IMG/VR virus record: IMGVR_UViG_2541047878_000001
Span: 1-44,521 of that record
DNA from: a virus
Taxonomy: Duplodnaviria; Heunggongvirae; Uroviricota; Caudoviricetes
DNA length: 44,521 nucleotides
Direction: 5' to 3' (one strand)
A program made the translations under genes and the position numbers. Within the stretch, counting starts at the first letter, position 1. Each line of letters opens with the position of its first letter. This document shows positions 1 through 42,843 of the stretch, piece after piece. Under the pieces are notes generated by a model. That model saw only the letters and a list, made by a program, of their open reading frames with translations. It had not been told where the DNA came from and searched no databases.

Positions 1-1254
1 ATGCTGGAACAAATGGGCATTGCCGCGAAGCAAGCCTCGTATAAATTAGCGCAACTCTCCAGCCGCGAAAAAAATCGTGTGCTGGAAAAAATCGCCGATG
101 AACTGGAAGCACAAAGCGAAAGTATCCTCAACGCTAACGCGCAGGATGTTGCAGACGCGCGTGCCAATGGCCTTAGCGAAGCGATGCTTGACCGTCTGGC
201 ACTGACGCCCGCACGGCTGAAAGGCATTGCCGACGATGTGCGCCAGGTGTGCAATCTCGCCGATCCGGTGGGGCAGGTAATCGATGGCGGCGTACTGGAC
301 AGCGGCCTGCGTCTGGAGCGCCGTCGCGTGCCGCTGGGGGTGATTGGCGTGATTTATGAAGCGCGCCCGAACGTGACGGTTGATGTTGCTTCCCTGTGCC
401 TGAAAACCGGTAACGCGGTGATCCTGCGCGGCGGCAAAGAAACCTGTCGCACTAACGCTGCAACGGTAGCGGTGATTCAGGACGCCCTGAAATCCTGCGG
501 CTTACCGGCGGGTGCCGTGCAGGCAATTGATAATCCTGACCGTGCGCTGGTCAGTGAAATGCTGCGTATGGATAAATACATCGACATGCTGATCCCGCGC
601 GGTGGGGCTGGTTTGCATAAACTGTGCCGCGAGCAGTCGACAATCCCGGTGATCACAGGCGGTATAGGCGTATGCCATATTTACGTTGATGAAAGCGCAG
701 AGATCGCTGAAGTATTAAAAGTGATCGTCAACGCGAAAACTCAGCGACCAAGCACATGTAATACGGTAGAAACCTTGCTGGTAAATAAAAACATCGCCGA
801 TAGCTTCCTGCCCGCATTAAGCAAGCAAATGGCGGAAAGCGGCGTGACGTTACACGCAGATGCTGCTGCGCTGGCGCAGTTGCAGACAGGCCCCGCGAAG
901 GTGGTGGCGGTTAAAGCCGAAGAGTATGACGATGAGTTTCTGTCATTAGATTTGAACGTCAAAATCGTTAGCGATCTTGACGATGCCATCGCCCATATTC
1001 GTGAACACGGCACGCAACACTCCGATGCGATCCTGACCCGCGATATGCGCAACGCCCAGCGTTTTGTTAACGAAGTGGATTCCTCCGCTGTTTACGTTAA
1101 CGCCTCTACGCGTTTTACCGACGGCGGCCAGTTTGGACTGGGGGCGGAAGTTGCGGTAAGCACACAAAAACTCCACGCGCGCGGCCCAATGGGGCTGGAA
1201 GCACTGACCACTTATAAGTGGATCGGCATTGGTGATTACACCATTCGTGCGTAA
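1..1254 (+). CDS. proA: Gamma-glutamyl phosphate reductase (complete, 417 aa)
   Basis: Full-length ORF whose N-terminus and length match enterobacterial ProA as I remember it; lies immediately upstream of thrW as in E. coli. Confidence 0.9.
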
Positions 1255-1458: not shown

Positions 1459-2622
1459 TTATACATCATTAGTACCTTCCTTATTTTTTGACTGGGACAA
1501 ATTTGGGACCGATGGGTTCAGGATCGAGTCTATTTGCCGTGCGTGTTCGGTAAGGTGATTAGGTGCGAGGTGAGCATATCGACGAACCATTTCGATAGAC
1601 TCCCAGCCTCCCATTTCCTGTAACACTGACAACGGGACTCCGGCTTGAACCAGCCAACTTGCCCAGGTGTGTCTCAAGTCGTGAAATCTGAAATCATCAA
1701 TACCTGCTCGTCTCAGCGCCGCTTTCCAGGCTGTGTTTGCGTCATACCGCATCTTCCTGACCGTTGGCGCTTTCGTTCCGTCTGGTTTGGTACAGCTTTC
1801 CTTGTACACAAATACCCAACGGTGATGATTCCCGATTTGTTTTTTCAATACGCGACATGCAGTATCATTCAGCGCAACGCCAATTGCGCGGTTTGATTTA
1901 CTCTCTTCCGGGTTTATCCATGCCACCCGGCGCTGCATATCTATTTGTTGCCATTCAAGGTTGATGATGTTCGAGCGTCTTAAGCCTGTTGCCAGTGCAA
2001 ATTCAACAACAGACTTTAATGGCTCCGGACATTCATCAATCAGCCTTTGTGCTTCATGGGGCTCCAGCCAGCGGATCCGTTTATTCTTTGGTTGAGGCAC
2101 TTTAATAATTGGTGCCTTATCCAGCATTTTCCATTCACGCTCTGCGGCTCTTAGTAGGGCCTTTATAAATGAAAGATGCGTAGCCTTCGTTGCAACGGAC
2201 GCTGGTTTTGGCGTGTATTCTGGAACAGGTTTCCCTTTTTTTCTGCATGCTTCTGCCCTGAGTTTCCAGTTTTCCTCATGACGCCGGTTCGTCATTTTCT
2301 GCATTGCTGAATAAATTTTTGATTCAGTAATGTCTCTTAGTTGCATTCCTGCGAAATGTTGAAGCCAGAATCCGATCCGGCTTTTGTCATCGTCCAGTGA
2401 TTTTTTATGTGCTTTCTCTTCAAGCCACCTGACACACGCTTCCTCGAACGTTATATCAGGTATTTCACCAAGTTTGCTGACCCGCCATGCTTCAGCCTTT
2501 AGCTTGTCATGGAGTTCTGTCGCCTGCCTTTTGTCCTTTGTTCCAAGAGACTGTTTAAATCTTTTACCGTTCGGCAATGTGAAACTGGCGTACCATATTT
2601 CACCTCTGCGGAAGAGTGACAT
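1459..2622 (-). CDS. int: Tyrosine-type prophage integrase (IntD-like), 387 aa
   Basis: N-terminus [14 protein letters not shown] and C-terminal HDLRHT...Y catalytic region; AGGAAAG RBS upstream of the ATG; stop 15 bp from the thrW 3' end (attL side). Confidence 0.9.
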
Positions 2623-5429: not shown

Positions 5430-5933
5430 TTATTGATAGTGTTTTATGTTCAGATAATGCCCGATGACTTTGTCATGCAGCTCCACCGATTTTGAGAACG
5501 ACAGCGACTTCCGTCCCAGCCGTGCCAGGTGCTGCCTCAGATTCAGGTTATGCCGCTCAATTCGCTGCGTATATCGCTTGCTGATTACGTGCAGCTTTCC
5601 CTTCAGGCGGGATTCATACAGCGGCCAGCCATCCGTCATCCATATCACCACGTCAAAGGGTGACAGCAGGCTCATAAGACGCCCCAGCGTCGCCATAGTG
5701 CGTTCACCGAATACGTGCGCAACAACCGTCTTCCGGAGCCCGTCATACGCGTAAAACAGCCAGCGCTGGCGCGATTTAGCCCCGACATAGCCCCACTGTT
5801 CGTCCATTTCCGCGCAGACGATGACGTCACTGCCCGGCTGTATGCGCGAGGTTACCGACTGCGGCCTGAGTTTTTTAAGTGACGTAAAATCGTGTTGAGG
5901 CCAACGCCCATAATGCGGGGTGTTGCCCGGCAT
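5430..5933 (-). CDS. insB: IS1 InsB (transposase frame, expressed as InsAB' by -1 frameshift)
   Basis: 167-aa ORF overlapping the insA 3' end within IS1. Confidence 0.85.
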
Positions 5934-7571: not shown

Positions 7572-8276
7572 CTAAAGCCGGTTGTATTTAATTGATTCGT
7601 GTATCAATGCTTTGCCCATAACATAAAGTTGATCTTGGGACTTCTCATCAATGTACCATTTCTCATAGGCTGGATTATCCGAAAGAACGGCGAGTTTGTT
7701 GCCTTGCATTTGTAGACGTTTAACGTGGAACGTCTTACCATAAACGAAAGAGTAAACACCATCAGTTTGGAAGTTGCGAACAGAAATGTCGACAAACAGT
7801 CGATCTCCGGAAACTAGAGTAGGGGACATGCTGTCGCCATTTACAGTCATAACTTTAATATCATCTTGAGAACGATTACCGAAAAGAGAACGGGCATGCT
7901 CTGTTGTGAACTCAATGGCGTAGAGCACATCAACATAGTCTGAAAGCATATAGGTCCCAGGTCCTGCGCTAACGCTAAGATCCAAAACTTCTATCCTGTA
8001 TACATCGGGTTTTGTTGGATTGGGGATGCTTGCCATTTCCTTACATCCTTCTCTCTCGCCAACACCATATTCTAAATATGAAGCTGATACCCCCAGAGCC
8101 AATGCAAGTTTATTCATGACAGAGGCACGAGGCTTCGCAGCGCCGATTGTGTATCGCCGCGCCATTTCATATGTAACGCCCACAAGACTTTTGAGTTGGG
8201 TGACAGAAATTCCCTTGTTTGTCATTAGCTCGTTTAGTCTCTTGGCGAAATCTGGATACTTCTGTTCTTCTACCAT
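7572..8276 (-). CDS. cI: CI-like repressor (HTH plus LexA-like S24 peptidase domain)
   Basis: N-terminal HTH (MTNKGISVTQLKSLVGV) and C-terminal S24-like domain (VNGDSMSPTL...GKTFHVKRL); start ambiguous between 8276, 8312 and 8333, and 8276 leaves a typical operator-containing intergenic region. Confidence 0.8.
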   Translation of the reverse strand: MVEEQKYPDFAKRLNELMTNKGISVTQLKSLVGVTYEMARRYTIGAAKPRASVMNKLALALGVSASYLEYGVGEREGCKEMASIPNPTKPDVYRIEVLDLSVSAGPGTYMLSDYVDVLYAIEFTTEHARSLFGNRSQDDIKVMTVNGDSMSPTLVSGDRLFVDISVRNFQTDGVYSFVYGKTFHVKRLQMQGNKLAVLSDNPAYEKWYIDEKSQDQLYVMGKALIHESIKYNRL

Positions 8277-8314
8277 AGGTAGAAGATTACTCGCATCACA
8301 TACGCTAGTCATTT

Positions 8315-8350
8315 CTATTTTAAGTAGTTGCATTTTGCTATTTTAAGTAG
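8315..8350. promoter_or_regulatory. OR-like operator repeats in the cI-cro divergent promoter region
   Basis: Two copies of CTATTTTAAGTAG (8315-8327, 8338-8350) 23 bp apart between divergent cI and cro. Confidence 0.45.
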
Positions 8351-10518: not shown

Positions 10519-11009
10519 TCATGAGTCTTTTGAATGAAGTTCAGAAATACATTGAAGCCCATCCGGGGTGTACTTCCGGAGACATTGCGGATGCTTTTGC
10601 AGGTTACTCACGGCAGCGCGTTCTGCAGTCAGCAAGCAAGTTACGTCAGAGTGGTCGTGTGGCTCACCGTTGTGAAGGGGATACACGCAGACATTTCCCG
10701 CGCCTGACTGAGAGAGCGCAGGAGGCGGAACCGCAACCAGTTCGTGAAACCAGACCTGTGCGCAATTTCTATGTCGGCACTAACGACCCGCGGGAGATTT
10801 TGTGCCTGACCCGCCAGGCGGAAGAACTGGAGTCCAGGGGCTTATACCGTCGTGCTGCAACGGTGTGGATGGCGGCATTCCGTGAAAGCCACTCCCAGCA
10901 AGAGCGAAACAATTTTCTGGCGCGTCGTGAGCGGTGCTTACGGAAAAGCAGCAAGCGCGCTGCATCGGGTGAAGAGTGGTATCTGTCAGGGAATTACGTG
11001 GGGGCTTAA
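10515..11009 (+). CDS. PerC-domain transcriptional regulator-like protein (Pch/PerC family C-terminal region)
   Basis: C-terminal AEELESRGLYRRAATVW...RRERCLRK matches the remembered PerC/Pch signature; N-terminal half unassigned. Confidence 0.45.
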   Translation: MIMSLLNEVQKYIEAHPGCTSGDIADAFAGYSRQRVLQSASKLRQSGRVAHRCEGDTRRHFPRLTERAQEAEPQPVRETRPVRNFYVGTNDPREILCLTRQAEELESRGLYRRAATVWMAAFRESHSQQERNNFLARRERCLRKSSKRAASGEEWYLSGNYVGA

Positions 11010-11662
11010 TGAGTAATAAATATTGCCAGGCGCTGGTGGAACTGCGGAACAAACCAGCCCATGAACTGAAGGAAGTGGGCGATCAGTGGCGCACGCCGGA
11101 CAACATTTTCTGGGGAATTAACACCCTGTTTGGCCCGTTTGTTCTGGATCTGTTCACTGACGGTGATAACGCCAAATGTGCCGCGTATTACACGGCGGAA
11201 GACAACGCGCTGGCGCATGACTGGTCAGAACGTCTTGCGGAGCTTAAAGGTGCTGCCTTTGGTAATCCCCCATACAGCCGCGCCAGTCAGCATGAGGGGC
11301 AATACATCACCGGCATGCGTTACATCATGAAGCATGCCAGTGCCATGCGTGATAAAGGCGGGCGCTATGTTTTCCTGATCAAAGCTGCCACCAGCGAAGT
11401 GTGGTGGCCGGAAAATGCAGATCATATTGCTTTTATTCGCGGGCGTATTGGTTTTGAACTGCCTGTCTGGTTTATCCCGAAAGACGAGAAGCAGGTACCG
11501 ACAGGCGCTTTCTTCGCTGGTGCTATTGCTGTTTTCGACAAGACCTGGAAGGGACCGGCAATCAGCTACATCGGGCGCGATGAACTTGAGGCATGTGGTG
11601 AGGCCTTTCTGGCGCAGGTTCGCCAGCAGGCGGAAAAACTGGTCAGGGAGATGGCGGCATGA
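11010..11662 (+). CDS. Phage Dam-type N6-adenine DNA methyltransferase
   Basis: Catalytic NPPY motif (FGNPPYSR) and DxWxTP N-terminal region; start at ATG preceded by GGGGG. Confidence 0.7.
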
Positions 11663-11985
11663 CGACGTTAACTCAATGCCAGCAGCAGGTGCTGGATATG
11701 CTGATTTCTTACCAGAAAGAGCGTGGCTTTCCGCCAACCAATCAGGAGGTGGCAACCATGCTGGGATATCGTTCAGTGAATGCAGCGGTGGAGCATCTTC
11801 GCGCACTGGAGAAAAAAGGCGTCATCACGATAAAGCGTGGTGTGGCCCGGGGGATAACGCTTCATACCGCGGTGAAGGACGACGACAGCGAGGCGGTCGG
11901 GATTATCCGCTCACTGCTTGCCGGTGAGGAAAACGCCAGGCTGCGTGCAGCCCACTGGTTACATGAGAGGGGTCTGAAAGTATGA
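11659..11985 (+). CDS. LexA N-terminal DNA-binding-domain-like protein (no peptidase domain)
   Basis: 108 aa resembling the LexA winged-HTH (QQQVLDMLISYQKERGFPPTNQEVATMLGYRSVNAAVEHLRALEKKGVI). Confidence 0.45.
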   Translation: MTTLTQCQQQVLDMLISYQKERGFPPTNQEVATMLGYRSVNAAVEHLRALEKKGVITIKRGVARGITLHTAVKDDDSEAVGIIRSLLAGEENARLRAAHWLHERGLKV

Positions 11986-12371
11986 AGCTGATTCTGCCTT
12001 TCCCGCCCAGCGTGAACACGTACTGGCGACACCCCAACAAAGGGGCGTTTGCAGGTAAGAGCCTGATAAGCGCGGCGGGGCGCAAATTCCAGAGCGCGGC
12101 GTGTGCAGCAATAGTTGAGCAGTTACGTCGTCTGCCAAAACCAACGTCGGCACCTGCTTCAGTGGAGATCGTGTTGTTTCCTCCGGATAACCGGATCCGC
12201 GATCTGGACAACTATAACAAGGCGCTGTTTGACGCCCTGACCCACGCGGGTGTGTGGGAAGACGACAGTCAGGTGAAAAGAATGCTGGTGGAGTGGGGAC
12301 CGGTTATCCCGGAAGGGAAGGTCGAGATCACTATCAGTAAGTACGAGAAAACGGCGGGTGCAGCCGCCTGA
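11982..12371 (+). CDS. rusA: RusA-family Holliday junction resolvase
   Basis: Typical RusA length and motifs (FPPSVNTYW..., DLDNYNKALFDALTHAGVWEDDSQV). Confidence 0.8.
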   Translation: MKLILPFPPSVNTYWRHPNKGAFAGKSLISAAGRKFQSAACAAIVEQLRRLPKPTSAPASVEIVLFPPDNRIRDLDNYNKALFDALTHAGVWEDDSQVKRMLVEWGPVIPEGKVEITISKYEKTAGAAA

Positions 12372-14591: not shown

Positions 14592-15014
14592 TCAGCTTTG
14601 CGGATCGGCAGTTTCTGATGGTGTAATGTTACGCGCAGATGTTTCAAGTATAGATTCCCTTCCGATTGATACCAAAATTTCGATTGTTCTTGCTTTAGCC
14701 TGCATCAATGTTGATTTTATTTCAGGACTTAAGTGGTCAGATCGTAACTGCTTCTCAATCTCAGCCAAATCACGCTTGCATTTTGCTCTTTTGGCTGCGT
14801 CTTCTGGAGATTCGAAACCATGCCTCGAAATGAACCAATTCATGACGTAAGTTAAAGTTGCCGCAACACCCGGTACTAATGCGTAGGCTACAGTTCGCCA
14901 CACGCTATTAGGGTCGGTTAAAATCGCGCTAACAAGAACACTTAAAATTGCTCCCCAACCACCAGTTGAAAGGGTAGCTTTTCCTGTGCTTAGACCTTTA
15001 GTTTGAGAATTCAT
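14592..15014 (-). CDS. Cassette gene 3: two-TM membrane protein with coiled-coil tail (140 aa)
   Basis: Two hydrophobic helices followed by a charged helical C-terminus; 4-nt overlap with the upstream gene. Confidence 0.5.
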   Translation of the reverse strand: MNSQTKGLSTGKATLSTGGWGAILSVLVSAILTDPNSVWRTVAYALVPGVAATLTYVMNWFISRHGFESPEDAAKRAKCKRDLAEIEKQLRSDHLSPEIKSTLMQAKARTIEILVSIGRESILETSARNITPSETADPQS

Positions 15015-15280
15015 TTTCGTTTTGAATTCTCCGCAATTGCCTCATCAATGAGGGTTGTTAGCATTTTTCCCTTTTTACTTGGAACTTTTATTACTAGCGT
15101 TTTGGTCACTCCGGAATCTTCATCGTGATATCGGAATTCGAAGACTTTTGTAGGGAATAGTCGACGCCAAAGCAAGGCTGACGCTGAATAGCAAAAACGA
15201 CTAAAGGCAGGGATGATCATTATCACCCCTATCCAGAAGATCAGTTGTGCTATCTGCATGTTTAGTGTCACTTTTGTCAA
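15011..15280 (-). CDS. Cassette gene 2: small single-TM membrane protein (89 aa)
   Basis: N-terminal hydrophobic helix (IAQLIFWIGVIMIIPAF); ATGA-type overlaps on both sides. Confidence 0.45.
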   Translation of the reverse strand: MTKVTLNMQIAQLIFWIGVIMIIPAFSRFCYSASALLWRRLFPTKVFEFRYHDEDSGVTKTLVIKVPSKKGKMLTTLIDEAIAENSKRK

Positions 15281-16146
15281 GCCTCAGCAGGGCGTTTTCG
15301 TTTTACTTTGGTTATAGCATACTTGGTTGTGGCATTTCGCGCAGTGAAAGTTTTTATAGTTTTTAGCTCAACAACAAACAAATCTTCTTTTGTAAAACTG
15401 ATGATTCCGTTTTGAACTTGGTGTATAAACAACTGATCTTCAAAGGTAACAGCATGCTCTTCGCCTAAATAATCGATTCTCCAACCCTTTGTACCCTCGA
15501 AGTTGATCTGTACGAATCTAACATTGACTTCTTCTACAGACTCTTCTTTTTCAAGTAGTGTGCCTCTAGGCAGCGGTTTGATCTCTTCGGTTTCACTTCC
15601 TTCAAGACGAACGACTTCTTCGCCTTCATCATTCAGCACCTTAAATACTGCTCCTTGTTTGCCGTCTAATGGTGCACGAACTACATTCACAAGGGCATCA
15701 CGGACTTCTGGATCTGTTACTAACTTAGCCACTGAGTCATGGCAAACAATTTCTTCCCCTTCAAGCTCAAGAACAGATTCTTCTGTTCCTGCCCGTTTTG
15801 TTACCGAAATTACTTTCTTGCTGCCCAGTTGGCGGATTAGTGATAATGCTGGAGCTCCAATAGTAGCCCCGGCTATCCCTGTTAGGCCAATCACTTTTGC
15901 TACGTCGACGGCATGAGGAACAAGCTCCATCATCGTATAGGATACGCCGAGTGATCCCGCTTCAGCTGGATTAGTAACCATTAACTTAACGGTTTGTTGG
16001 CCGTCATTAAGTCTTTTATCAGCTGCTGATATTAAATCTGCCATCGAACCTATGGAAATGCTTAATGTTTTGGCATCAATTTTATGCTGTGCTAATTCAT
16101 TATCCTCTGCATCGTAGAAGATCTGAAAAGAAGTTGTTTTAGTCAC
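15277..16146 (-). CDS. Cassette gene 1: soluble acidic protein of unknown function (289 aa)
   Basis: Long ORF opposite to the phage late direction, no TM segment, no motif I recognise; first gene of a three-gene coupled operon. Confidence 0.55.
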   Translation of the reverse strand: MTKTTSFQIFYDAEDNELAQHKIDAKTLSISIGSMADLISAADKRLNDGQQTVKLMVTNPAEAGSLGVSYTMMELVPHAVDVAKVIGLTGIAGATIGAPALSLIRQLGSKKVISVTKRAGTEESVLELEGEEIVCHDSVAKLVTDPEVRDALVNVVRAPLDGKQGAVFKVLNDEGEEVVRLEGSETEEIKPLPRGTLLEKEESVEEVNVRFVQINFEGTKGWRIDYLGEEHAVTFEDQLFIHQVQNGIISFTKEDLFVVELKTIKTFTARNATTKYAITKVKRKRPAEA

Positions 16147-16272
16147 TCTTTGCTCGCTATGTCTTGATTTTTTTCCATAAAATACCTTTTTTTGGTGTAA
16201 AAAACATTATCGCGGTCCGCAAAAATTGCGTTACTGTGTTAAGAGTGATTACTTCGTCACACAGCTTAAACC

Positions 16273-16300
16273 CGCCGTCGAGCGGGTTTTTTTATACCTG
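16273..16300 (+). terminator. Rho-independent terminator (candidate tR'-like)
   Basis: Hairpin AAACCCGC-CGTCGA-GCGGGTTT followed by a run of seven T. Confidence 0.5.
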
Positions 16301-16760: not shown

Positions 16761-17813
16761 ATGAAAAATACTGTAAAAATAAACAGTGTTGATTTAATCA
16801 ACGCTGATTGCCTGCATTTTATTCAGTCCCTGCCTGATGATTCCATTGACCTGATAGTTACCGATCCGCCGTACTTCAAAGTGAAGCCCAACGGTTGGGA
16901 CAATCAGTGGAAAGGGGACGAAGATTACCTTAAGTGGCTGGACCACTGTCTGGCTCAGTTCTGGCGGGTGCTGAAACCTGCCGGAAGCCTTTACCTGTTC
17001 TGTGGACATCGCCTGGCATCTGATATCGAGATCATGATGCGTGAACGTTTCAACGTGCTTAACCATATCATCTGGGCGAAGCCGTCCGGACGATGGAACG
17101 GGTGTAATAAAGAAAGCCTGCGGGCATATTTCCCCGCTACAGAGCGCGTTCTGTTTGCTGAACATTACCAGGGGCCATATCGCGGCAAAAGTGACGGCTA
17201 TGCGGAAAAAGAAAGGGAACTCAAACAGCACATAATGGCACCGCTGATATCGTATTTCAGGGATGCACGTGCCGAACTGGGTATAACGGCAAAACAGATT
17301 GCCGAAGCCACTGGTAAGAAAAACATGGTTTCCCACTGGTTTGGTGCCAGTCAGTGGCAGTTGCCGAATGAGGCTGACTACCGGAAGTTGCAGGCACTGT
17401 TTTCCCGTATAGCGGCAGAGAAGTTTCAGGAACAACAACTGGAACAGACACACCACCAGCTGGTGGCATCTTATGATTCACTGAATCGCAAATATTCTGA
17501 ATTGCTGGATGAGTTTAAATCTCTCCGGCGCTATTTCTCCGTATCAGTCTCCGTGCCTTATACCGATGTCTGGACGCATAAGCCCGTTCAGTTCTACCCG
17601 GGTAAACATCCGTGCGAGAAACCGGCGGATATGCTCCGGCAAATAATCAATGCCAGTAGTCGACCTGGTGATCTGGTTGCTGATTTCTTTATGGGATCCG
17701 GTTCCACAATAAAAGCAGCAATGGCGCTGGGGCGTCGGGCGTTAGGTGTTGAACTTGAGTCAGAGCGGTTTAATCAGACGGTGAAAGAGGTAAGTGAACT
17801 GGTGGGGAAATAA
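16761..17813 (+). CDS. Orphan DNA methyltransferase (N6-adenine/N4-cytosine family, DPPY motif)
   Basis: SIDLIVTDPPYF catalytic motif and C-terminal FFMGSGST SAM-binding motif; no adjacent restriction endonuclease ORF. Confidence 0.8.
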   Translation: MKNTVKINSVDLINADCLHFIQSLPDDSIDLIVTDPPYFKVKPNGWDNQWKGDEDYLKWLDHCLAQFWRVLKPAGSLYLFCGHRLASDIEIMMRERFNVLNHIIWAKPSGRWNGCNKESLRAYFPATERVLFAEHYQGPYRGKSDGYAEKERELKQHIMAPLISYFRDARAELGITAKQIAEATGKKNMVSHWFGASQWQLPNEADYRKLQALFSRIAAEKFQEQQLEQTHHQLVASYDSLNRKYSELLDEFKSLRRYFSVSVSVPYTDVWTHKPVQFYPGKHPCEKPADMLRQIINASSRPGDLVADFFMGSGSTIKAAMALGRRALGVELESERFNQTVKEVSELVGK

Positions 17814-39396: not shown

Positions 39397-40266
<870 letters not shown>

Positions 40267-40761: not shown

Positions 40762-40862
40762 TTGACAAAACCTAAGGTAAGCGTATACTCACAACCGCCA
40801 AGTTTTTCGTATTTGCTTACGATAGGAGAAGCCAGCGACAGCGGTTCGCTGGCTTTTTCGTT
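40762..40862 (+). ncRNA. Candidate small RNA: near-consensus sigma-70 promoter followed about 45 nt later by an intrinsic terminator
   Basis: TTGACA, 17-bp spacer, TATACT at 40762-40789, then hairpin GCCAGCGA-CAGCGGT-TCGCTGGC plus TTTTT at about 40833-40860. Confidence 0.3.
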
Positions 40863-41394
40863 ATCTTTTTGCATTTTTTCTCATCCAAGTTTCAGCCGCT
40901 TGTTGACTGACACCAAATGTTTTGCTTATATCTTCAACAGTCATTGTGGGCAAAACTAGTCTTGAGTCAATTAAGAAGTGGCTTGCAAAAACATCTGCTT
41001 GCCATTCGCTGTCTTCATAGATTTTATGCCCTCCACTAGTCTTATTACGTGCATAGATACTTTGATTGCGATGCATGACTAAATGACCAAGTTCATGCGC
41101 AACAGTGAATCTCGCATGGTTCTCACCATTGCACACTGCATCGTAAACAGATCGCTGTAAAACAATTTTGTTCTTATCTGGATAAGTCACTGCATAGCGT
41201 TTGGGCAGTTCATGATCTTCAACAATTTCTAGCTCAATGCTTTCTGAGGCCATAAGACCTTCTAGTAATACATCCAGTCTCAGATATGTGTGATTTGATA
41301 TCTGAAGAACGTCTCTCAGACGATGAGCGTATGATTTAATCATGCTGGTGCTGAGAGGTGAAACGCGATGGCCAAGTTCTCGTTTCGCAATCAT
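40861..41394 (-). CDS. ImmA/IrrE-family zinc metallopeptidase
   Basis: HEXXH motif (FTVAHELGHLVMH) in a 177-aa protein immediately downstream of, and coupled to, an XRE-family HTH gene. Confidence 0.7.
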   Translation of the reverse strand: MIAKRELGHRVSPLSTSMIKSYAHRLRDVLQISNHTYLRLDVLLEGLMASESIELEIVEDHELPKRYAVTYPDKNKIVLQRSVYDAVCNGENHARFTVAHELGHLVMHRNQSIYARNKTSGGHKIYEDSEWQADVFASHFLIDSRLVLPTMTVEDISKTFGVSQQAAETWMRKNAKR

Positions 41395-41397
41395 TAT

Positions 41398-41775
41398 TCA
41401 GTCCTTTAACATTTTATTAAGCTTATCGAGTTGCTCTGGACTCAGGTCCTTAAATTTACGAGCAAAAACAAGCATTAGTTCTTTGTTCTGCTCATTTGCA
41501 TCCGACATATCAACCTTAATGGACGGTTGAGAAATCTCTGCCTGTTTCTTGAGATTGATGATGTCTTGTCCGCTAAGCTCAAAAGTTGTTGCAATCGTAT
41601 TTACTAATGAGTCCGGTATAGCTCTTTTGCCTAATTCAATGGCGGATAAGTAAGCCGAACTAACGCCTAACAGATCAGCCATATTTTTGAGCACCATACC
41701 CCGGTCTATTCTCATTTTTCTGAGAGTCTTACCAAAGCTAGTTACCATGTTGCGCCTCCTACAATCCATGCTCAC
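41398..41775 (-). CDS. XRE-family HTH transcriptional regulator (ImmR-like)
   Basis: HTH (LRKMRIDRGMVLKNMADLLGVSSAYLSAIELGKR) at the N-terminus; upstream partner of the ImmA-like gene. Confidence 0.7.
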   Translation of the reverse strand: MSMDCRRRNMVTSFGKTLRKMRIDRGMVLKNMADLLGVSSAYLSAIELGKRAIPDSLVNTIATTFELSGQDIINLKKQAEISQPSIKVDMSDANEQNKELMLVFARKFKDLSPEQLDKLNKMLKD

Positions 41776-42081: not shown

Positions 42082-42843
42082 GTGCAAAAGAATTTGTTAC
42101 AATTATGCTACGAAGGAGAGTGTGGAGAAAATTATATCCGTAGCATGAATGAAAAAGGGCAGATTTTTGTTTCACTTTCAGATGTGCTAAGAACGCTTTC
42201 TGCTGAGAACAGAAAACTGGATGGAAAGACTTCTCAAAGCTTGCTCACTGTAATAAGAGCGGTAATAAAAACTTTAGATCCAGATGAGTTTAGGAATGTT
42301 TCTCTTGTCGTGGATGGTGAAACTATCTCTGAGGTATTTCTTACTGAACCAGGTCTATATAGAGTACTTGCTCAGGATACTACTGCTGCGGGGAAAAAAT
42401 TCCAACGCTGGCTTTTTCATCAGGTCCTTCCGTCTATTCGTGAATTTGGTGTATATCCTCCGCCACCTAAGCAAGAACGTTCAGAACTGAGTGCTTTTGC
42501 TAACAGTCTGCAGCAGACGGTTCAAGCATTGGTAATGGAAATAGAAAAACGTGAAGAGTTAGAAAGTAGAGTAAACCAAGTTGAACTAAAAGTTAACTCG
42601 TTAGAAAGTTTAAGAGATTTGTCTCAGTTCAGAAGTGTTCCTCAACGATTGATGGAGTTAGGTTTGGATACCTATTCGGTTGAGGAGCTTTGGCAATGGT
42701 GTGAAAAATTGCGTAGTGAACGTGGAGCAGAAAGAATTAAGTGCCCCTCCGGATTGAATATAAATTCTTGCTATCCATTAGCTTTGGTTGATGAAGCTAT
42801 CGCTATATACCAGAAAGTAGTTGAGGCAAGAACACGTCAGTGA
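42082..42843 (+). CDS. Bro-N domain protein (antirepressor-like)
   Basis: Bro-N-like region (FLTEPGLYRVLAQDTTAAGKKFQRWLFHQVLPSIREFGVY) and coiled-coil C-terminus; divergent from the XRE/ImmA pair; GTG start after AGGAGG. Confidence 0.6.
   Translation: MQKNLLQLCYEGECGENYIRSMNEKGQIFVSLSDVLRTLSAENRKLDGKTSQSLLTVIRAVIKTLDPDEFRNVSLVVDGETISEVFLTEPGLYRVLAQDTTAAGKKFQRWLFHQVLPSIREFGVYPPPPKQERSELSAFANSLQQTVQALVMEIEKREELESRVNQVELKVNSLESLRDLSQFRSVPQRLMELGLDTYSVEELWQWCEKLRSERGAERIKCPSGLNINSCYPLALVDEAIAIYQKVVEARTRQ

Follow-up and report, generated by a model that had tools for sequence, protein, structure and literature searches.

A phage protein with the DNA-binding domain of LexA, a family-specific tail, and no S24 protease domain, encoded in the nin region of an SfV/SfII-like lambdoid prophage

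A prophage-encoded protein of 108 amino acids (aa) carries the N-terminal winged helix-turn-helix (wHTH) of LexA and has lost the S24 autoprotease domain; it is conserved among enterobacterial prophages and is encoded in an early lytic operon. The window is the whole stretch of viral DNA that was analyzed, 44,521 nucleotides (IMG/VR record IMGVR_UViG_2541047878_000001, positions 1 to 44,521). Our preferred reading, held tentatively, is that of a non-cleavable LexA-derived regulator, which would be dimerized by its tail, bind SOS-like operators, and re-repress LexA targets during the SOS response. Occupancy of SOS boxes by an uncleavable protein of this kind, if it does occur, would put a phage-encoded brake on the SOS response and would affect prophage induction, the release of Shiga toxin, mutagenesis during antibiotic exposure, and the way in which prophages compete; otherwise, the protein would be one more phage-specific winged-helix regulator.

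The gene for this protein (here the LexA-DNA-binding-domain [LexA-DBD] gene) lies on the plus strand at positions 11659 to 11985, stop codon included (ORF list and sequence), with an ATG start at 11659 and a TGA stop at 11983 to 11985. A Shine-Dalgarno sequence, AGGGAG (11645 to 11650, plus strand), was read from the sequence 8 nt 5′ of the ATG, within the 3′ end of the upstream phage dam gene (Dam N6-adenine methyltransferase; 10976 to 11662, plus strand; Pfam PF05869, E = 7.8e-46). The dam stop and the LexA-DBD start overlap as ATGA (11659 to 11662), and so do the LexA-DBD stop and the start of the downstream rusA gene (ATGA, 11982 to 11985; RusA Holliday-junction resolvase, 11982 to 12371, plus strand; Pfam PF05866, E = 6e-15). 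Because of these overlaps at both of its ends, the LexA-DBD gene is predicted to form, with dam and rusA, a set of three translationally coupled genes. Its position is in the nin region, within the early-right operon of an SfV/SfII-like lambdoid prophage, where the plus-strand order is O-like replication protein, PerC-like protein, Dam, LexA-DBD, RusA, KilA-N, DUF968/HNH, and antiterminator Q. The gene lacks any intergenic space of its own, and neither a promoter for it alone nor an adjacent operator was found; nor was a repeated or palindromic candidate operator identified near the gene. Since it lies in the nin region with no promoter of its own, the gene is presumably expressed with the delayed-early lytic genes, a timing that we infer from operon structure.

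The first-pass annotation had described, from the sequence alone, a protein resembling the LexA N-terminal wHTH without the S24 autoprotease domain. Profile searches bore out both parts of that description, and the coordinates that it gave were correct. Its further suggestion, that the protein could bind SOS boxes as a non-cleavable LexA mimic, is plausible. Pfam PF01726 (LexA_DNA_bind) matched residues 1 to 65 over the whole profile (1 to 65 of 65; E = 2.9e-19; 69 bits, against a cutoff of 23.7), and a Pfam search of the 108-aa protein for Peptidase_S24 gave no match. NCBIfam TIGR00498 (the lexA equivalog) aligned over profile positions 1 to 91 of 203 only, and its 70.8 bits fell under the 110.95 cutoff. 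The phmmer search against the PDB returned 1lea, the DNA-binding domain of E. coli LexA (E = 7e-16; residues 2 to 69 on 2 to 69), and the PHROG 362 profile matched over the full length, tail included (E = 1.4e-59; residues 1 to 108 to profile positions 1 to 106 of 106). The LexA-DBD match is thus far beyond chance, and the protein belongs to PF01726 and PHROG 362. It is not LexA proper, because the S24 domain, the catalytic dyad, and dimerization through a C-terminal domain are all lacking. Subthreshold Pfam matches to Crp, Rrf2, HrcA, and DnaD and a PADLOC match to a CARF wHTH (E = 3.6e-4) were dismissed as generic winged-helix similarity. The CI-type repressor of the prophage (HTH_3 plus Peptidase_S24; 7572 to 8333, minus strand) is encoded by a separate gene; unlike CI/LexA-like cleavable phage repressors of this architecture, the LexA-DBD protein has no domain for RecA*-dependent autocleavage.

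An AlphaFold2 model was built on an alignment of 36 family sequences (mean pLDDT 84; pTM only 0.58; a monomer and silent on oligomers), and a single-sequence AlphaFold2 model was set aside as too poor (pLDDT 61). The former comprises a wHTH at residues 1 to 68 (11659 to 11862, plus strand; pLDDT about 90), with helices at residues 6 to 22, 28 to 35, and 40 to 52 and strands at 56 to 58 and 66 to 68, a low-confidence linker at about residues 70 to 74, and a family-specific two-helix tail at residues 75 to 88 and 93 to 103 (11881 to 11967, plus strand; pLDDT 86 to 88). The best PDB match by Foldseek was the LexA-DNA complex 3jso (root mean square deviation [rmsd] 1.0 Å over 68 columns; 50% identity), and the Foldseek matches past LexA (MntR, ArsR, and MepR; rmsd 6 to 11 Å) were uninformative on the tail. 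The phage protein is like E. coli LexA (1lea, 3jso, TIGR00498) in its N-terminal wHTH, which is about 50% identical, overlays at 1.0 Å, and keeps S39, N41, A42, E45, and the wing R64-G65-I66. It is unlike LexA in having no S24 domain, no Ser119/Lys156, and no C-terminal-domain dimerization, in having V at E44 and P40, and in carrying a helical hairpin of 35 residues; its gene also stands in an early lytic operon and is not autoregulated from an SOS promoter of its own.

The residues of helix 3 through which E. coli LexA contacts DNA are S39, N41, A42, E44, and E45 (PMC3091678). By alignment to E. coli LexA, the recognition helix of the window protein is at residues 40 to 52 (VNAAVEHLRALEK; 11776 to 11814, plus strand), with S39 just before it. 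Four of the five contacts are the same (S39, N41, A42, and E45) and E44 is replaced by V; P40V is a further difference from LexA in the E. coli clade. Throughout the family, S39, N41, and the wing motif R64-G65-I66 are invariant, whereas position 44 is never Glu in the 36 aligned members, which have a hydrophobic or small residue instead, and position 45 has E in 19 members, D in 7, and L in 6. On sequence grounds, the E. coli clade is the closest of the family to the LexA code, and the kept contacts and invariant wing support recognition of a CTGT-like half-site by the window protein, with a specificity that may be shifted in this clade by P40V and E44V.

Positions 40, 42, 44, and 45 of helix 3 vary between clades; the Klebsiella clade, for example, reads SSSNAVLLHL. 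If LexA helix 3 is conserved among the host genera concerned, as we take it to be, this variation implies that the recognition code of LexA does not constrain the family as a whole. Clade-specific variation at these four positions is also a mark of operator-specific repressors, and it points to the main rival of a LexA-mimic mechanism, a somewhat doubtful one in our judgment: that the wHTH is a borrowed scaffold and the protein a phage-internal regulator with a clade-specific operator other than the SOS box, tuning phage early or late transcription or the downstream antirepressor-like gene. The annotation of PHROG 362 ("transcriptional repressor") and the conserved adjacency to the KilA-N/ANT gene agree with such a regulator. 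It is harder to square with S39 and N41, which are invariant, and with E45, which is kept in the E. coli clade, all as in LexA, or with a gene that has no intergenic region and no repeated or palindromic candidate operator nearby.

The tail helices have no LexA counterpart and stand where LexA has its hinge and S24 domain. Conserved in the tail among members down to 39% identity are A79, L/I82-83, R84, L86, E90, A93, R94, R96, A97 (in 36/36 members), F/W/Y100, L101, and G105, at a spacing of i, i+3/4, and i+7, as in amphipathic helices. We propose the tail as a dimerization or partner-binding element. LexA needs two DNA-binding domains per box, and by analogy the most likely role of the helical hairpin is to bring two wHTH domains together in place of the dimerizing C-terminal domain of LexA. 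Stand-alone LexA_DNA_bind proteins (PHROGs 24920 and 3502) likewise have a LexA-type wHTH without S24 and are widespread in phages, with entries in BFVD from Caudovirales, Tectiviridae, and Mycobacterium phage Wildcat; unlike the window family, they are mostly 70 to 90 aa long without a tail or have two domains (140 to 170 aa), and by this comparison the helical hairpin is specific to the enterobacterial group. Proteins P0133, P0152, P0156, and P0160 (140 to 170 aa) and P0148 (352 aa) have a tandem pair of LexA_DNA_bind domains and gave no S24 match; they are apparent single-chain pseudo-dimers of the LexA DNA-binding domain. Tandem duplication makes such S24-less LexA domains bivalent, which indicates that bivalency is important in proteins of this kind.

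The alignment of the protein with LexA by HMMER passes through the LexA cleavage-site region (VAAGE against LLAGE), places A88-G89 opposite A84-G85, and ends at about residue 90; a MAFFT pairing of the tail with pieces of the LexA C-terminal domain was judged an alignment artifact. The extension through the cleavage-site region would fit a protein-contact decoy or competitor, for example, one titrating RecA*, ClpXP, or LexA through the LexA-like hinge motif LLAGEE. We regard such a decoy as very improbable: A88 is present in only 21/36 and G89 in only 18/36 family members, and the A88-G89 segment is modeled by AlphaFold2 as a turn between helices and not as the LexA strand-loop, with the active site absent in cis. 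The RecA*-binding surface of LexA, moreover, is in the C-terminal domain, which the phage protein does not have. A retained LexA cleavage site was rejected as a defining feature, residues AG 88-89 being variable across the family.

Another comparison is with the N-terminal fragment of LexA (residues 1 to 84), which is also a DNA-binding domain without a protease; the phage protein resembles a stabilized version of it and differs in running on into a structured tail. In nature, the fragment has a ClpX degron at its end (VAA-COOH) and is quickly degraded. As a precedent for the preferred reading, it reportedly retains weak operator binding (a result ascribed to Kim and Little in 1992), and it is said, after work by Neher et al. 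in 2003, that it must be removed by ClpXP. Degradation of LexA fragments by ClpXP is described in a preprint (bioRxiv 10.1101/2020.07.14.201889).

The LexA-DBD gene is already known and annotated and is not new as an object. Of 5426 complete E. coli genomes, 2233 (about 41%) have it at 95 to 100% identity; it is intact in 2222 complete genomes and is named "LexA family transcriptional regulator" there by PGAP. Shiga toxin (Stx) 2a phages carry a 100% identical gene named "repressor, lexA family," and 95 to 99% identical copies are present in SfII (SfII_44, "LexA DNA binding domain protein"), SfIV, SfV (orf42), mEp460, the cdtI phage, Stx2c and Stx2k phages, and further phages, for a total of 50 phage records. 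The PHROG 362 and RefSeq "LexA family transcriptional regulator" entries of lambdoid phages are the same gene (95 to 100% identity at the nucleotide level) in the same Dam-LexA_DBD-RusA position, with no substantive difference from the window copy; their names are based on homology only, and some are wrong. The 108-aa protein has been called "SOS-response repressor and protease LexA," "RecA-mediated autopeptidases," "Rrf2 family transcriptional regulator," and "hypothetical protein," of which the protease names are wrong because the S24 domain is absent. Full-text literature searches for experimental work on the LexA-DBD-only family found none and returned only functional analogues (GIL01 gp7, AriS, and DinI). 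A gene this frequent in complete E. coli genomes, and carried by Shiga-toxin and Shigella serotype-converting phages, thus has a homology-based name only.

For the wider family, a scoring of all 1.84 billion representatives and a subsequent profile search turned up full-length relatives, with identities as low as about 40%, in Escherichia, Shigella, Citrobacter, Salmonella, Cronobacter, Klebsiella, Enterobacter, Atlantibacter, Kosakonia, Raoultella, and Hafnia. Comparison with the SfII copy gave a dN/dS of about 0.10, and comparison with relatives of roughly 50% identity gave about 0.27 to 0.30; the gene is under purifying selection. The protein does resemble a truncated LexA, as a functionless, decaying remnant of a captured lexA gene would, but these conservation data contradict that origin and leave it scarcely credible: dN/dS is 0.10 to 0.30, the gene is intact in the 2222 complete E. 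coli genomes, and the tail, which LexA lacks, has been conserved in Escherichia, Salmonella, Citrobacter, Klebsiella, Cronobacter, Enterobacter, and other enterobacterial genera.

Gene order around distant relatives bears on a different role. In Cronobacter prophages, at 47% identity, the order PerC-Dam-LexA_DBD-RusA-ANT-DUF968-Q is kept. This conserved Dam-LexA_DBD-RusA order and the predicted translational coupling would suit an accessory of DNA metabolism, whose winged helix positions or modulates Dam, RusA, or replication proteins on phage DNA, and the wHTH is weakly similar both to DnaD_N and to PHROGs of O-like or DnaD-like type (E = 0.009 to 0.15). Those similarities are subthreshold and generic for winged helices, however, and the genes in SfIV and Klebsiella have no Dam or RusA adjoining them, so a partnership with Dam and RusA is not obligatory; we consider an accessory role of this sort distinctly improbable. 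The Klebsiella case is a prophage (GCA_003196185.1; L002 4385-5393) with a homologue of 130 aa (43% identity) in an operon of the order dinI-orf-LexA_DBD-orf-DUF968. The recognition helix of this homologue has Leu-Leu at LexA Glu44-Glu45.

Candidate targets for the preferred reading, that of a non-cleavable regulator on SOS-like operators, were sought with an SOS-box weight matrix made of 29 E. coli LexA sites. The Klebsiella operon is preceded by a perfect SOS box (TACTGTTTATTTATACAGTA, 27.1 bits) 20 nt before dinI, and the genes upstream are on the opposite strand. From this arrangement, the Klebsiella homologue is probably part of a LexA-controlled operon together with another SOS modulator, and a dinI operon behind an SOS box plausibly counts for the LexA-mimic reading. 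In the window, the only strong SOS box is TACTGTAAAAATAAACAGTG at 16769 to 16788 (22.4 bits; an exact CTGT-N8-ACAG, above the median of known sites), where 0.017 such sites are expected per window from local-composition shuffles. It overlaps codons 3 to 10 of a late-region N6_N4 DNA methylase gene (16761 to 17813) and may serve host LexA, and perhaps the LexA-DBD protein as well, as an operator. The methylase gene lies downstream of Q and of a tR′-like terminator (16268 to 16289), and its 5′ end is common to SfV, cdtI, mEp460, Ayreon, and Stx2c phages.

Boxes scoring 18 bits or more numbered 57 in the 1.28 Mb of 80 IMG/VR loci with a 99 to 100% identical gene, against 0.7 in shuffles, and at least one was present in 45/80 of these loci. 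They fall into three main classes, at the part of SfII-type cI that codes for the hinge, at the methylase start, and in the spacer between rusA and the KilA-N gene. Shigella phage SfII (KC736978; locus L001 2446-2465) has a perfect SOS box (TACTGTTTTTATATACAGTA, 26.8 bits) within the coding sequence of cI, where it falls in the hinge (NTVYKNSN) that joins the HTH and S24 domains, and this box or a one-base variant was found in 26/80 IMG/VR loci, 2.9 to 5.3 kb upstream of the LexA-DBD gene. In variant phages (locus L102 8069-8088), rusA is separated from a KilA-N antirepressor-like gene by a spacer of 150 bp with the strong SOS box TACTGTATTTATGAACAGTG (22.3 bits), which suggests that in these phages a LexA-controlled antirepressor follows directly downstream of the LexA-DBD/RusA pair; the same spacer in the window is only 20 bp long and has no box.

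As a control, Q-anchored loci were sorted by tblastn according to whether they carried a LexA-DBD family gene. No association between box and gene was found among them: 28/43 loci with the gene had a box, as did 9/13 without it, and the boxes totaled 36 over 746 kb with the gene and 9 over 197 kb without it. Strong LexA boxes are thus a property of the phage group and not of the LexA-DBD gene. Being equally frequent with and without the gene, the boxes are available targets and no evidence for a mechanism, and the argument that phage-borne boxes are cis targets of the LexA-DBD gene was dropped. This lack of association also favors the phage-internal regulator with an operator of its own. In Cronobacter loci with the LexA-DBD gene, no box above 8 bits was found within 10 kb.

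The preferred mechanism would then run as follows. A regulator that derives from the N-terminal domain of LexA and binds DNA at specific sequences would be made from the early-right (nin-region) transcript with Dam and RusA, mainly during lytic growth after induction or infection. Because the catalytic domain, the S24 serine-lysine protease, is absent, self-cleavage stimulated by RecA* is impossible, and the protein would persist when host LexA is destroyed. With two wHTH domains paired by the helical hairpin, it would bind SOS-box-like operators, that is, host SOS promoters and/or the phage LexA boxes in the cI hinge, in the late methylase gene, and before the KilA-N antirepressor-like gene. 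Such operators are the most likely targets because the E. coli/Shigella clade largely keeps the CTGT-reading residues of helix 3. LexA-controlled genes would be re-repressed while the SOS signal is still on.

A stronger form of this mechanism, which we consider unlikely, makes the protein a RecA-proof surrogate LexA that re-occupies SOS boxes after prophage induction or infection while host LexA is being destroyed. Were it true, the protein would shut off host SOS functions together with the antirepressors that LexA controls in co-resident prophages and would thereby shape the dynamics of Stx-phage induction and the competition between prophages, and the tail would be a new minimal dimerization module for LexA-type domains. 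Phage-borne proteins that dampen or reshape the host SOS response are GIL01 gp7, the DinI-like prophage proteins, and Listeria AriS (PMC4551915, PMC9043618). The window protein would be like them in modulating SOS from a phage, and dinI is the operon partner of the Klebsiella homologue; they are proteins of other kinds, however, which by description act on LexA or RecA proteins and not on operators, and the analogy is functional only.

By megablast, the window holds an SfV/SfII-like lambdoid prophage, with best matches to vB_EcoM-720R4, SfV, SfII, and SfIV. At the left end, window positions 1 to 1254 are a host gene of the aldehyde dehydrogenase family, and the prophage adjoins a tRNA-Thr(CGT) gene (1369 to 1444). 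The phage integrase gene (1459 to 2622, minus strand), in a region that matches SfV, SfII, and SfIV, is followed in order by an IS1 transposase, a ParA-like ATPase, the CI-type repressor, and a CII-like gene; the IS1 transposase ORF (5430 to 5933, minus strand; Pfam DDE_Tnp_IS1, E = 1e-77) is in the early-left region. Between Q and the late promoter region is a reverse-strand block of three genes (15277 to 16146, 15011 to 15280, and 14592 to 15014, all minus strand). A 289-aa product of this block (14592 to 16146) matches the PADLOC candidate defense family PDC-S42 (E = 8e-33), and the block is a possible prophage-borne anti-phage cassette. The accessory region at the right end has a GIY-YIG nuclease-like ORF (39397 to 40221, minus strand), an ORF for an IrrE/ImmA-type M78 peptidase (40861 to 41394, minus strand) followed by a small ORF (41398 to 41775, minus strand), and a gene for a Bro-N protein (42082 to 42843, plus strand). 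The ImmA-like protease and its small partner gene (40861 to 41775) could be a second, SOS-linked switch.
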